Origin: an uncultured Gemmatimonadaceae bacterium
GTDB lineage: Bacteria > Gemmatimonadota > Gemmatimonadetes > Gemmatimonadales > Gemmatimonadaceae
Assembly (NCBI GenBank): GCA_963817955.1
Contig: CAWFQK010000002.1
Span: 1,099,326 to 1,163,325 of the forward strand
Direction of reading: 5' to 3'
Length of the DNA stretch: 64,000 bases
Below are positions 18,331 to 24,077 of the stretch, one piece after another. The notes under the pieces were generated by a model. That model worked only from the letters and a program-made list of their open reading frames with translations. It did not search any database and had not been told where the DNA came from. The stretch's first letter is position 1. Every line of letters begins with the position of its first letter. Made by a program: the position numbers and the translations under genes.

Positions 18331-18590
18331 GTCGTGTCGGAGGAAGCGATCAGCGAGCGGCAAGTGCCTGGGCGCGCGCGGACTTCAGCACGCGGCGAAG
18401 GACCCCAAAATGGAGACATTCCGAGACTTCTAAATGTACCCGAAAACACAACGAAACGCAACGGCAAGAAGGCGCTGTAAGTTGTTAATTGTCAATAGCT
18501 TGCAATGATCGTATTTCCGGTACTGTTGGGTGCGAAAAAGGGCGTCCGAACCGGACGCCCCTCGCACCATGACGCCGAACCGTCGAGTGC

Positions 18591-19397
18591 TCATTCCGGC
18601 GGTGTGGACGATTCTGGCCGCCGCAGATCGGGGTTCGCCGGGCGGCGCATTTGCGCCTCTTCCTCATCAGCTTCGGCATCGGCCTGCTCCTCCTCGTGCC
18701 GTTCGCGCGCCAGCGCTTCCGAGCGCTCGCGACGATAGCGCTCGTACCAGTCGCGCGTGATCTCACCGGCAAGCTCACGGTTGCCGAGCCCGAACGACAG
18801 CGACAGCGCCAGCGCGATCGCTCCAAACAAAATGGCGAATGCTGTCGTCACGATGTCCGTCGCGATGCCCAGCTGCTGCAACGCCATGAAGATCGCGAGC
18901 AGGATGACGCCACCACGGCCCAATCGGGCGAGCGAACGCCCGCCGTGCACCGCACCCGCCGATGCGGCGATCAATCCCCCGACGAATCCCCCGAGCACGA
19001 TGCCGACGAGAATGATCACGATCGCCGCGATCACGCTCGGGATGTAGCTCACCAGCGTCGACACCACGTTTGCCAGCGAGTCGAGTCCGAGCGAGTTCGA
19101 CGCGAGCAGGATCACGGTGAACATCACCAACCAGAACACCAGGTTGGCGAGCACACGCGTCGGATTCACGTGCGTCCCGGAGCGCTCCACCGCCTGAGTA
19201 ACGCCGCCGCGCTCGAGCAGGTAATTCAGCCGAATCCGACGCAGCCCCCGCTCGACCCATCTCTCGAGCAGCTTCGCGAGCAGATAGCCGGCGAAGAGAA
19301 TGACCAGCGCGCCGAGCAAGGCCGGAAGCGTCTGTCCGAACACCCGCTGGAAGCTCGTTTGCAGGCGATCGCTAAAATCGGTCGTGTCTTGTTGCAT
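18591..19397 (-). CDS. Small-conductance mechanosensitive channel-like TM-helix repeat protein (CmpX-like)
   Basis: Repeated 'LPALLGALVIL' / 'IPSVIAAIVII' helices, ALQQLGIA, FGLG. Confidence 0.8.
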   Translation of the reverse strand: MQQDTTDFSDRLQTSFQRVFGQTLPALLGALVILFAGYLLAKLLERWVERGLRRIRLNYLLERGGVTQAVERSGTHVNPTRVLANLVFWLVMFTVILLASNSLGLDSLANVVSTLVSYIPSVIAAIVIILVGIVLGGFVGGLIAASAGAVHGGRSLARLGRGGVILLAIFMALQQLGIATDIVTTAFAILFGAIALALSLSFGLGNRELAGEITRDWYERYRRERSEALARERHEEEQADAEADEEEAQMRRPANPDLRRPESSTPPE

Positions 19398-19503
19398 TGT
19401 GGGTGAATCTAAGGAGCTTGCGTCTGTGGCATAGGGTCAAACGGTCAGGCATCTCGTCTCCCGTGTCCCGTTGTCTGTGTGACCGCAGACGGCGCAACAG
19501 CCA

Positions 19504-19545
19504 TTTAACGCAGAGAACTGCAAGAGAACGCAGAGAACTGCAGAG
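19504..19545 (+). repeat. Left arm of a REP-like inverted repeat array (GCAGAGAACT units); target of IS110 #1
   Basis: tttaacgcagagaactgcaagagaacgcagagaactgcagag; 19510-19529 is the exact reverse complement of 21416-21435. Confidence 0.8.
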
Positions 19546-19579
19546 CTATCTGAGGTTATCCGTCAAGGGGAAAAGGACG

Positions 19580-20878
19580 TCATGCAGTCGCGGGGACGAG
19601 GTGCGCGGTGAGGGGTGAGCCGCGGTGTTCGAGCGCGCGGACATAGCGCGCGTCGTCATACGGGATGCTGTCGTGCCAGCAGCGCCAGAGAATCCGGATC
19701 CATTTGAACGCGAGCGTGCGAATGGCGGCGTGATGCGACTTGCCGCGTTGTCGTTGCAGGTGATAGAACGCGCGCGCCCAGGGGACGTGCGGTAGCGAGT
19801 ACTGTGCGAACTCATGAAAGGTCTGGCGAAGAAACTTCGAGGTCGCCCAGCGCCAGTGCACCACGCAGCTCTTGCCGCTGCGCACGGTAATCGGGGCGAT
19901 CCCTGCGGTTTGCTGCACGTCCGCCGCTGAGGGGTAGCGCGTGCGGTCCGAGCCAAACGCGACCAGGAGCCGCGGTGCGAAGGCCGCGCCGGCGCCCGGC
20001 ACTGACTGAAAGATCACTGCATCGGGATGGGCGGCGAACGCCGCGGCGATCCGCTTCTCGAGCGCGACCAGACTCGGGTGCAGGGCCAGCAACTGGCGGG
20101 CGAGCATCTGCGCATGGAGGGCATGGGACTCGATGATGGCCGGGTCGCGCGTCAACGGGGTGGCCGTGGCGATTGCCTCCAGGCGCGCCGTGATGCCCGA
20201 CTGGCTGCGGCAATTGTGCGCCGTGTAGAACGTCCGCACCGTCGCGGGGCGCGCGCGCTGCAGGGCTTCCAGCGTGGGCCACCGCTCCAGAAAGTCGCAG
20301 GCCAGGGGCGCACTGAGGTCGGTGCCGGCCACGGTGAGGGCGAGGGGGAAATAGGCCTTGAGCACGGCCTGCAACTGCTGCGTGAGCCGGGTCCGCATGT
20401 CCACGAGCGTGCGCCGGATCTGCACGAGGTAGTTGAGCGAGCGCGTGGCGGCATCCTCCGGCATCCAGGGGTGCAACTGGGCCTGATGGTGCGTCAGCAA
20501 GGCGAGCAGGAGCCGCGCATCCGGCACGTCGTCCTTGGCGCCGTTGGGGGAGAACACTTGGCGGAAGCGGCACAGGCTGCGCGGATTGACGGGATAGAGC
20601 ACGAGGAACGGCGCCTCGAGGAGCGCGTGGACAATCGGGCCCCGCGAGGTCTCCAGGGCGATGCCGATCGGTTGGCCCCCGAAGCGGTGCGCGAGCGTGG
20701 CGAACCAGGCCGCGAGCGCCTCAGGGGTGTGCGCGAGGCGGACGGTCTCGACGGTCGCCGAGTCGGCGGCCTGCAGCGCGATCTCGTGGTGCTGGTCGCC
20801 CCAGTCGAGGCCGATCCGGGCCGCGAGTGGGATCAGTGGGGTCAGCGGAGTGGTATCCATTAGAGGAGTGGCATCCAT
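19580..20878 (-). CDS. IS110 family DEDD recombinase/transposase (432 aa)
   Basis: GLDWG, ALETS, VNP, KDDVPDA (D-E-D-D), PGAG, GIAP..RSGK catalytic serine. Confidence 0.95.
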   Translation of the reverse strand: MDATPLMDTTPLTPLIPLAARIGLDWGDQHHEIALQAADSATVETVRLAHTPEALAAWFATLAHRFGGQPIGIALETSRGPIVHALLEAPFLVLYPVNPRSLCRFRQVFSPNGAKDDVPDARLLLALLTHHQAQLHPWMPEDAATRSLNYLVQIRRTLVDMRTRLTQQLQAVLKAYFPLALTVAGTDLSAPLACDFLERWPTLEALQRARPATVRTFYTAHNCRSQSGITARLEAIATATPLTRDPAIIESHALHAQMLARQLLALHPSLVALEKRIAAAFAAHPDAVIFQSVPGAGAAFAPRLLVAFGSDRTRYPSAADVQQTAGIAPITVRSGKSCVVHWRWATSKFLRQTFHEFAQYSLPHVPWARAFYHLQRQRGKSHHAAIRTLAFKWIRILWRCWHDSIPYDDARYVRALEHRGSPLTAHLVPATA

Positions 20879-20924
20879 GAGACGCTCCGGACAAAGGAAA
20901 GGGTCGCAGCACGGGTCGCCGGGG

Positions 20925-21210
20925 CCACGCACGCTTCGGCACTCGAAAGTCTTATAGCAGTCGTCGAGGGGTCGTCTCTCGCAGTCGTCTCTCGCAGTCG
21001 TCTGCCCTGACCCGCTTGACACACGTCAGTATCTGAGGATTCGTTTCACCGAAGCGCATCATCCGGCTCGTCGGGCTCTGCAGATTCGTCGCACGAAAGA
21101 CCGTAGGCAGTCGTAGCCGGGTGGTGCGTGTTCCCTCTTCTGCCTACACCGCAGAAGCAGTTTCAACTGGCGCGGAAGACGTGCGACCCGCACCCCTCAC
21201 TCGGCGCAGC
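20925..21210 (-). ncRNA. Putative bridge RNA of IS110 #1
   Basis: Stem CCGGCT/AGCCGG (21063-68, 21115-20) encloses target-matching segments; stem CGCTTCGG/CCGAAGCG (20932-39, 21049-56) encloses CCTCAGATA, identical to the element's right end. RNA ends are approximate. Confidence 0.75.
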
Positions 21211-21297
21211 GGAAGAACTAAAGATAGGACCGTGAAGGATTGTCTCGCCTGGAAGTCTTGGCTGATGCCGTCGTGACGCTCCGATGGTATCGCCCAG

Positions 21298-21360
21298 GTC
21301 GGGATCATCAACGATATCGGCGGAATGCTTGTGGACTCGGCAATCACGGTTCATTCCACC
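21298..21360 (+). pseudogene. Possible N-terminal fragment of a GxxExxY-family gene
   Basis: Translation VGIINDIGGMLVDSAITVHST resembles the GxxExxY N-terminal helix; the rest is absent; lies between the GCAGAG-type inverted repeats. Confidence 0.4.
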
Positions 21361-21390
21361 AATACGCGCTTCCCTCTTCCGTACGCTTAC

Positions 21391-21450
21391 AGTTCTCTCC
21401 TGCAGTTCTCTCGCAGTTCTCTTGCAGTTCTCTGCGTCCTCTGCGTTAAA
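21391..21450 (-). repeat. Right arm of the REP-like inverted repeat array
   Basis: agttctctcctgcagttctctcgcagttctcttgcagttctctgcgtcctctgcgttaaa, complementary to 19504-19545. Confidence 0.8.
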
Positions 21451-21469
21451 AGCTGTTCTATCGGTCACC

Positions 21470-21490
21470 GAGATCCTTCGCTTCGCTCAG
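21470..21490 (+). repeat. REP-type element GAGATCCTTCGCTTCGCTCAG|GATGACA, split by IS110 #2 (remainder at 22730-22736)
   Basis: The rejoined sequence is the reverse complement of TGTCATCCTGAGCGAAGCGAAGGATCTC, a widespread palindromic repeat motif (from recall). Confidence 0.8.
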
Positions 21491-21512
21491 CAACTGTCTT
21501 GAAAGTCAAGGA

Positions 21513-22715
<1,203 letters not shown>

Positions 22716-22815
22716 CTCAGAGATACAAGGATGACAGACAATTCGCCCACTCATTTCCGCGAAGACCCCCCTCTAGGGTAGACGCGCCGGTGTCACCGGA
22801 CCTCCGCGAAGGTCA

Positions 22816-23043
22816 TTAGTTCCTCGTCCCCCGCTTCACGTCAAAGATCACGCTGCGCTTGCACGTGGCGCAGATCAACCATTCGCGCCGCCGCGAGTAG
22901 CCCAACCCGAATGAACCGCCGCCGATGCTGCGGGCGGTGAGTTGCGTACCATCGCGTGGGCAGACCGCCGCGCCGCCGCTCGCGTATGCATCGCGAATCG
23001 CGCGCTCCTCGACCAGCTCGTACTTCGCTGATTCAGCGGTCAT
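22816..23043 (-). CDS. Small zinc-ribbon hypothetical protein
   Basis: CPRDG...CATC; ATGA overlap with the upstream dehydrogenase. Confidence 0.7.
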   Translation of the reverse strand: MTAESAKYELVEERAIRDAYASGGAAVCPRDGTQLTARSIGGGSFGLGYSRRREWLICATCKRSVIFDVKRGTRN

Positions 23044-24077
23044 GAGATCCGCACTACGATTTTGCCGAACTGCGCGCCGCTCTGCAGTCGCTCGAAGGCG
23101 GCCCGTCCGTCGTTGAGCTGATACACGCTATCGATCGGGGGCAGCAACCGTCCCCGTCGCAGTTCGCCGACGACCGCGTCGAAGTCGGCGTCACTGCCCA
23201 TGGTGGAACCGAGAATCGACCACTGATTCCAGAACAGTCGGCGCACATCGGTTTCGACCATCGGGCCTGACGTGGCACCACAGGTCACGAGCCGCCCGCG
23301 CCGACCTAGCGCGCGCAAGGATTGATTCCAGGTCTCTTTGCCAACGTTGTCCACGACAACATCAACGCCACGTTTGCCAGTCTGATCGCGAATCGTGCGG
23401 GCGACGTCCACCTCGTTCCGATTGAGGCATTCGTCGGCACCAAGTCCCGCGGCGCGACGCAACTTCTCGTCACTGCTCGACACCGCCCAGACACGGGCGC
23501 CGAGCTGTTTGCAGATTTGAAGCGCCGCCAACGCCACGCCCCCGCCAATGCCCCAGATCAGCACGCTCTCGCCCGCCCGCACACGTGCGCGCGTCACGAG
23601 CATGCGCCACGCAGTGAGCGTTGCCAGCGTGAAGGCCGCAGCCTGCTCGGGTGAAACGCTGGCCGGCACGGAACGGACGTTCACCGCCGGCACCACGATG
23701 TACTCGGCCATCGTGCCGGGATAATGCTCGCCGAGGATGCCGAACTGCGGACAGAGCGGTTGCTCACCCTCGAGACAATACTCGCAGGTTCGATCACTCA
23801 AACCCGGATTGACGACGACGTAGTCGCCGGCCGAAACGTCCGTCACCTCGGCGCCTACCTGGTCGATGACGCCGCAGGCATCGGCGCCCAGTGTCCACGG
23901 CGGCGTGATGGTAACACCGGGCAAACCCGGTAGGACGAACAGGTCGAGATGATTGAGCGCTGCCGCCTTCACGCGAATGCGCACATCAGTTGGGCGCTGC
24001 ACTTCGGGCGCGGGAATGTCGTCACGCCACTCGATGCGATCGAGCCCACCGTGAGTGGAGATGGTAAGTGCTTGCAT
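23040..24077 (-). CDS. Zinc-binding alcohol dehydrogenase / MDR family oxidoreductase
   Basis: LNHLD, structural-zinc region CEYC...C, GIGGGVA, GATSG, GKIV. Confidence 0.9.

Follow-up and report, generated by a model that had tools for sequence, protein, structure and literature searches.

A divergent IS110-group insertion sequence with a predicted bridge RNA in an uncultured Gemmatimonadaceae bacterium

Location and boundaries of the element

A 64,000-nt stretch of DNA from an uncultured Gemmatimonadaceae bacterium (assembly GCA_963817955.1, contig CAWFQK010000002.1, positions 1,099,326 to 1,163,325; hereafter the window) carries on its minus strand an element of the IS110 family of insertion sequences (IS). 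Its body of 1,680 nt runs from 21225 to 19546, to which a duplicated CT core is added, and consists of a left non-coding end of 347 nt, the gene of a recombinase of 432 amino acids (aa) at 19580-20878, and a right non-coding end of 34 nt. The comparative evidence presented here makes it very probable that this is an IS110-group insertion sequence with a bridge RNA encoded in its left end, upstream of the gene. An earlier annotation made from the letters of the DNA alone, referred to here as the sequence-only reading, had proposed such an RNA; its protein length is the one given above and its estimate of about 345 nt for the non-coding end is close to our count.

Since the occupied site could be compared with empty ones, the boundaries of the element were set at CACGGTC-CT|ATCTTTAG...CAGATAG|CT-CTGCAG. 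The empty target named by the sequence-only reading, CACGGTCCTCTGCAG (CACGGTC-CT-CTGCAG), indeed has 14 exact occurrences in the genome, and 35 when up to one mismatch is allowed, nearly all of them at one fixed place within one repeat family. Each of the 14 exact sites contains a single CT, while CT flanks the element on both sides. Read along the minus strand, the insertion into the host repeat has the form ...AATCCTTCACGGTC-CT|ATCTTTAGTTC ... CCTCAGATAG|CT-CTGCAGTTCTC.... The left target arm (LT) CACGGTC lies in the host repeat at 21228-21234 and is followed by the left core dinucleotide at 21226-21227; the right junction (19538-19555) is made up of the donor arm CCTCAGATAG (19555-19546), the core CT (19545-19544) and the right target arm CTGCAG (19543-19538), all on the minus strand. 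Contigs from four DNA runs of one study were compared at the locus, and those stemming from other copies of the repeat jump 1682-1683 nt, from 19542/19543 to 21226. When the element was searched with blastn against the host genome (4.53 Mb), this was its sole full copy.

The target is an interspersed host repeat of about 350 nt with about 47 copies. With an empty copy as query, blastn returned 49 matches that were 150 nt or longer, among them the query's own position and the interrupted copy, and the depth of matches in the host genome was 46-53 across the core of about 350 nt. In the window the repeat occupies 21226-21512 and 19490-19545, and another example is found at G000 C2:144530-144882. 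Its ends are inverted and made of tandem CTGCAGTTCTC-like units, and its outer termini read ...CGTTAAAAGC, so that by its sequence it looks like a miniature inverted-repeat transposable element.

The recombinase and its relatives

The recombinase gene begins with the ATG at 20878-20876 and ends with the stop codon at 19582-19580 of the minus strand; protein searches were performed with the 431 aa following M1 (query start 20875). The protein contains the Pfam domains PF01548 (DEDD_Tnp_IS110, 7.9e-26) and PF02371 (Transposase_20, 8.9e-13) and scores 151.7 bits against NCBIfam NF033542, 'IS110 family RNA-guided transposase', for which the cutoff is 140. The DEDD residues D25, E76, D117 and D120 are the same in all nine aligned sequences. 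Ser334 of the SG motif, kept in eight of the nine, aligns with the 'ESGSS' stretch of IS621, which we take to be the carrier of the catalytic serine. The remaining sequence, L021 from an Opitutaceae metagenome-assembled genome (MAG), has N in its place (alignment A3, columns ~353-357), which may point to an inactive copy or to a local misalignment.

By sequence, the nearest solved structures are those of ISCro4 (E 5e-8) and IS621 (phmmer E 3.5e-7). An AlphaFold model computed from the nine-sequence alignment reached a mean predicted local distance difference test score of 85, and its top Foldseek matches were again IS621 (E 1e-13, target-normalised template modelling (TM) score 0.75) and ISCro4 (TM 0.77), with an identity of about 19-20% in the structural alignments. 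The recombinase is intact, and its predicted fold is that of the bridge recombinases from IS621 and ISCro4. The phmmer value, the low identity and the lack of a matching Rfam family make it fair to speak, as the sequence-only reading did, of a subfamily distinct from IS621. Most of the added length comes from an inserted helical segment (about 70 aa; model residues ~176-244) between two long helices, and the termini are longer as well. This insert is common to relatives from several phyla, and of 1,113 matching plasmid records 756 have a match that spans 80% or more of the protein, in every case with less than 60% identity. The long recombinase is therefore a property of a clade: the sequence-only reading was right about the length of 432 aa, but the feature is not unusual, as the clade is large and widespread.

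Relatives were collected from genome contigs, where 86 of 109 candidate stretches encode one, and from metagenome contigs, where 122 of 156 do; 80 were kept from each source. The best match from genome contigs has 66% protein identity and comes from a Gemmatimonadaceae MAG, and the best ones from metagenome contigs and from 401 genomes of the host's family both have 65%, so no relative above 66% was found in these three collections. Locus L084 (unpublished genome G270) was excluded from all alignments, models and counts. According to their titles, the records of the clade are Gemmatimonadaceae, Longimicrobiales, Acidobacteriota/Thermoanaerobaculia and Opitutaceae/Verrucomicrobiota MAGs as well as contigs from soil, sediment and other metagenomes. 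One Acidobacteriota MAG holds nine copies with differing flanks (L001-L006, L008, L019 and L025), which fixes the ends of that family directly as ...GGCCCG-CC|TATAGC...CTCAGATGT|CC-GGAGGCC, with a CC core within a palindromic repeat. The flanks of L013, L016 and L017, all from one MAG, are identical over more than 100 nt on both sides; being parts of a repeated unit of larger size, these copies do not represent separate insertion events. L087/L088 (G336 C8) is likely a pseudogene copy, its recombinase gene having an internal TAA and being matched in two pieces; its guides also agree less well with its flanks, the left one at six of eight positions.

Structure of the left non-coding end

RNAalifold applied to 17 sequences recovered the closing helix of the first loop and one helix of the second loop, and 12 of the 18 pairs were changed on both sides. 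A covariance model, R1, with 165 positions and 34 pairs gave 69 matches in 100 sources, each of them directly upstream of a recombinase gene and on the strand of that gene. Its match in the window, at 20921-21135 (128 bits), is the only one in both the window and the host genome. None of 16 loci of more distant relatives (29-41% protein identity; mostly actinomycete records) was matched by R1, and an Rfam search of 18500-23500 with E up to 1 returned no family inside the element. In the MAFFT alignment A2 the 3' strands of two helices were off by one column between clades, for which reason script checks and a model-based alignment, A4, were used instead. In A4, 88.0% of the cells are paired, compared with 61.5% after shuffling (none of 500 shuffles reached the observed value) and 29-39% with slid partners, and compensatory change is seen in 32 of the 34 modelled base pairs. 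The helices closing the two internal loops covary among the 69 loci.

When the four guides were kept single-stranded, the window sequence folded into two 5' hairpins, a closing helix and one arm each for target and donor. The two stem-loops that precede the binding loops are predicted within 21137-21193 (21193-21181 and 21157-21137). The core with the target and donor loops spans 20921-21135, and the long-range helix that closes both arms covaries: it reads CACGCA/TGCGTG in the window (21130-21125 and 20931-20926), CGGGCA/TGCCTG in L013 and CAAGCA/TGCTTG in L029. The target loop is closed by CCGGC/GCCGG and contains the inner hairpin UUCGU-GCG-ACGAA (TTCGTGCGACGAA, 21085-21097), in which all three modelled pairs are changed on both sides. 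The donor-loop apex (20958-21027) is about 49 columns longer than in most relatives (alignments A1 and A2) and includes a 13-nt tandem duplication at 21002-20971. A derivation of this repeat from the terminal repeats of the host repeat was rejected, since the 13-mer occurs in the element only and blastn-short gave no significant match. In L085 an unrelated insert of similar size is present in the donor loop.

Target guides match the insertion flanks

As described in those sections of PMC11208160 on which we draw, the 5' strand of a bridge RNA loop forms pairs to the DNA's bottom strand across 8-9 nt and the 3' strand to its top strand across 4-7 nt, both stretches taking in the core. In order to compare guides and flanks among the relatives, guides were read from fixed alignment columns, and ends were placed by conserved end motifs and by the equality of the dinucleotides left of the left end and right of the right end. 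The right target guides matched their own right flanks at a mean of 6.86 of 8 Watson-Crick positions, with 23 of 29 distinct pairs (from 45 loci) at 7 or more, whereas cross pairs reached a mean of 2.31 and none of 720 scored 7 or more. For the left target guides, where the highest score among three offsets was taken in own as well as in cross pairs, the means were 6.69 of 8 for own flanks (29 distinct pairs, 34 loci) and 3.91 for cross pairs; 20 of 29 and 16 of 762, respectively, scored at least 7, with the pair L093, whose end is probably misplaced, retained as a miss. A smaller set checked by hand gave the same pattern. Since own pairs score far above cross pairs, the guide/flank matches of these sequences exceed chance, and the covariation of loop and flanks among homologues, on which the sequence-only reading had staked its proposal, was found. 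At the level of sequence matches the comparison shows that the first loop follows the insertion site in each relative, its 5' strand matching the left flank and its 3' strand the right one.

In the window, the strings on which that reading had based its target loop, TACGGTCTT (21105-21097), TTCGTGCGACGAA (21097-21085) and CTGCAGAG (21083-21076), all lie on the minus strand where it had put them. The predicted right target guide CUGCAGAG (21083-21076) matches CT-CTGCAG at 8 of 8 positions and is followed by a handshake-like CC at 21075-21074, so that the two together occupy 21074-21083. The predicted left target guide UACGGUCUU (21097-21105) pairs, as UACGGUCU(U), through six Watson-Crick and two G-U pairs out of eight. 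The match with two wobbles claimed earlier is borne out, but its register lies one nucleotide away from the one most often used in the family: 23 left-guide pairs have an offset of 0, four of -1 and two of +1, the latter being the window and L111. An ideal target for the window's guide in the commonest register, ACGGTCTCTGCAG, has no site in the genome.

The core dinucleotide covaries in the DNA, the right target guide and the right donor guide and occurs as CT, CC or CG. CC cores are found in L001-L012, L092, L100 and L106-L110, and a CG core in L101. In the Opitutaceae-type relatives (L026, L028 and their relatives) the right target guides end in CA, and these elements may have a TG core. 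The concept of handshake guides is introduced in PMC13626964, from which we take it in outline. In all 36 rows the first base after the right target guide is complementary to donor position 7, being A with right ends in ...GT and C with those in ...GG or ...AG; this complementarity behaves as a two-state character tied to clade and is weak evidence for a handshake.

Donor guides, left end and junction promoter

In the second, larger loop the sequence-only reading had seen CCTCAGATA at 21038-21030, which is indeed identical to the right end of the element (19555-19547). The predicted left donor guide CCUCAGAUA(CU) covers 21028-21038 and reads in the sense of the element's right end, CCTCAGATAG-CT; nine contiguous matches of CCUCAGAUA are followed by a mismatch. 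The right donor guide, which that reading considered not clearly identifiable, could be located as CUAUAAG at 20957-20951, the dinucleotide AC after it extending the feature to 20949. It complements CT+TATAG, is conserved as CUAUA(A/G)G across most of the clade, and is the reverse complement of core plus TATAG, as present at the left where the relatives and a relic of the element in the host genome begin, but not of the left end of the window copy. By sequence, the second loop appears to match the element ends as far as the left donor guide and the family are concerned, whereas the window element's own left end does not fit.

This left end reads CT-ATCTT-TAGTTCTTCC, with ATCTT at 21221-21225 where the relatives and the relic have TA (canonical TATAG...). 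Among 33 relatives the left-end hexamers are TATAGC (15), TATAGT (14), TACAGT (2), TATAGA (1) and TATAGG (1), and ATCTTT is confined to the window among the 34 loci tabulated; as the left ends of the relatives were placed with the help of the TATAG motif and that of the window was set by hand, this count is not independent. A bulged pairing of the guide, CUA^AAGA with TCTTTAG (21224-21218), is possible by sequence and would place CT 21223-21222 at the core positions of the guide.

The relic, at G000 C8:4622-4678 on the minus strand, consists of 46 nt of left end in another copy of the target site. It reads CACGGTC-CT-TATAGTTCTTCC... for 46 nt, with the canonical TATAG start, and then CT-CTGCAG, and has 88% identity to the window element in a 60-nt blastn match. 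An origin by guide-directed excision at an internal target-like site was not supported: against the left target guide the internal CT at 21178 scores 6 of 8 with wobble, a value that 28 other sites (29 in total) also reach and that 8 of the 116 CT sites surpass.

The right end contains a -35-like TTGACG at 19561-19566 of the minus strand, which could serve as a promoter only on a circular form together with the left end. Counting across the joined ends of the window element gives TTGACG-16-TATCTT, exactly as the sequence-only reading had it. Of the relatives, 33 of 46 loci have a -35-like hexamer 15 nt before the right end (TTGACA in 27, TTGACG in five, TTGACT in one), so that, once the 2-nt core is counted in, TATAG(C/T) follows after a spacer of 17 nt. 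The geometry is conserved, and the joined ends are thus predicted to form a sigma-70-like promoter across the circle junction. By analogy with the biochemistry of IS621, the circular form would join the right-end TTGACG to the left end and transcribe the bridge RNA, and the recombinase would exchange strands at CT.

Alternative explanations and excision of the window copy

Several observations weigh against the reading as an IS110-group element with a bridge RNA. Folded without constraint, the minimum free energy structure pairs the guide regions and gives no loops (-115.2 versus -101.9 kcal/mol for the constrained fold). As A4 was fitted to the model and its sequences are related, its pairing figures favour the structure, and the ends of most relatives were set by motifs and core equality and not by empty sites. 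In the window copy, the left target guide fits only at +1 and reaches 3 of 8 when placed in the family's most frequent register. Its left donor guide fails to match at donor position 7 and at the second base of the core, the AC after the right donor guide is not complementary to target positions 6-7 (TC), and the left-end arm (CT+ATCTT), set in the canonical register, forms none of five pairs with the right donor guide. Moreover, there are only one full copy and one relic despite 14 free exact targets.

If the non-coding end were only a leader or promoter, with the protein picking the target and the loop matches being coincidental, it would be understandable that folding a single sequence does not by itself give the loops. 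Coincidence would lead one to expect neither the excess of own over cross guide/flank scores nor the covariation of core and helices, however, and the modelled protein has a bridge-recombinase fold, so that we regard this explanation as barely conceivable. More weight has to be given to the view that the element is of the same kind but that the window copy is a decaying, immobile remnant whose RNA and ends no longer cooperate, owing to the change at the left-end junction, the guide offset of one nucleotide and the expanded donor-loop apex. The unpaired right donor arm, the unique left-end hexamer and the single full copy among free targets would fit with it, as would the rarity of the element, which at a match of E up to 1e-60 is present in seven of the 401 family genomes, the host included, and in none of the 14 genomes of the host's genus. 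Set against this are an intact reading frame with all catalytic residues and the integrity of all helices and of three of the four guides, as well as the bulged pairing mentioned above; and since a comparable expansion is seen in L085 and six of 29 pairs are shifted by -1 or +1, neither the donor-loop expansion nor the guide offset is a defect per se. We therefore consider decay a possibility, but a rather doubtful one.

The atypical left junction might also be an assembly or sequencing error that hides a canonical CT+TATAG. It is a difference of five nucleotides for two at a single site of a nine-contig assembly, no independent contig spans 21217-21226 (one contig, of run X4, ends at 21217), and the relic has the canonical end. 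An error of this kind would not be a simple homopolymer slip, though, and elsewhere the contigs agree with the assembled element, including a 219-nt X4 contig with one differing letter; we judge such an error improbable. The interpretation as an IS110-group insertion sequence with its bridge RNA in the left end is preferred.

Two reports bear on whether such a copy can still move. In the portions used here, PMC13626964 states that excision requires recognition of the left junction bearing the right donor, and bioRxiv 10.64898/2026.08.31.748434 that it requires recognition of the donor arms alone. Because the right donor arm forms 0/5 pairs with its own guide, this requirement suggests that the window copy, provided its left junction is correctly assembled, might excise poorly, an outcome for and against which we see about equal grounds. 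A further conjecture, which we think unlikely, is that the copy is a natural 'locked-in' bridge element, in which recombinase and RNA are still made while excision has been lost. A small change at the crossover of the left junction would then have abolished the complementarity between right donor arm and guide, and the locked-in copy and the C8 relic would be in vivo examples of failing bridge recombination.

Comparison with known systems

The bridge systems of IS621 and ISCro4 have been described in PMC11208160 (Durrant et al. 2024) and in PMC11208158 and PMC13626964 (Hiraizumi et al. 2024, 2026), with the structures PDB 8WT6-9 and 9T56. With them the window element shares the DEDD (RuvC-like) domain, the coiled coil and the Ser-bearing Tnp domain, and an RNA located upstream of the gene, in the left end, whose 5' stem-loop(s) are followed by one loop for the target and one for the donor. 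Likewise, the strand on the 5' side of a loop reads like the top strand across 8-9 nt and that on the 3' side is complementary to it over 7-8 nt including the core; a CT core, a promoter predicted to be rebuilt on the circle and a repeat as target are also common to both. It differs in the length of the protein (432 aa versus 326-341 aa, with about 19-20% identity), in an RNA core of about 215 nt (165 model positions) with a long-range closing helix and a donor apex of variable length, in a right target guide of 8 nt, and in its target, an interspersed repeat of about 350 nt.

Other IS110-group elements with predicted bridge RNAs are ISPpu10, ISAar29 and ISHne5, which the legend of Extended Data Fig. 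10 in PMC11208160 describes; to judge from this description, diverse loops, 8-14 nt of target and donor complementarity and repeated intergenic targets are features they have in common with the window element. In the parts of that paper used here, a bridge RNA is predicted for 85.7% of the ISfinder IS110 elements, and the IS1111 group is said to have its RNA in the right end and long subterminal inverted repeats (7-17 bp). The IS1111 group is alike in its recombinase family and its RNA-guided logic, but the window element has its long non-coding end on the left (347 versus 34 nt), and R1 matches the left end only.

The element is therefore a divergent example of a known mechanism: bridge RNAs were described in 2024 and NF033542 already names the protein RNA-guided. 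A literature search joining IS110 or bridge RNA with Gemmatimon* found no report, although the supplements of PMC11208160, a study of thousands of orthologues, may list the clade; they lay outside that search. What these results contribute is an extension of bridge RNAs, by comparative evidence, to the clade of long recombinases, for which a covariance model and a guide map are now given. They also show natural variation in core identity, guide register (-1/0/+1) and donor-loop size; natural CC and CG cores, the three registers and donor-loop inserts of about 50 nt or more could be used by engineers. For the annotation of this genome, the element, the target repeat and the relic are explained, and the known mechanism is unchanged.

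A neighbouring IS110-family element

A second, unrelated IS110-family element is found about 290 nt away, at 21513-~22790 on the minus strand. It encodes a protein of 323 aa with PF01548 and PF02371, is single-copy, and lies at the outer edge of the interrupted repeat copy. The only Rfam match in 18500-23500 is a weak one to sX15 at 22534-22691 (35.4 bits, gathering score 55, E 0.0028), which falls in the 5' non-coding end of this second element, on the strand opposite to it.

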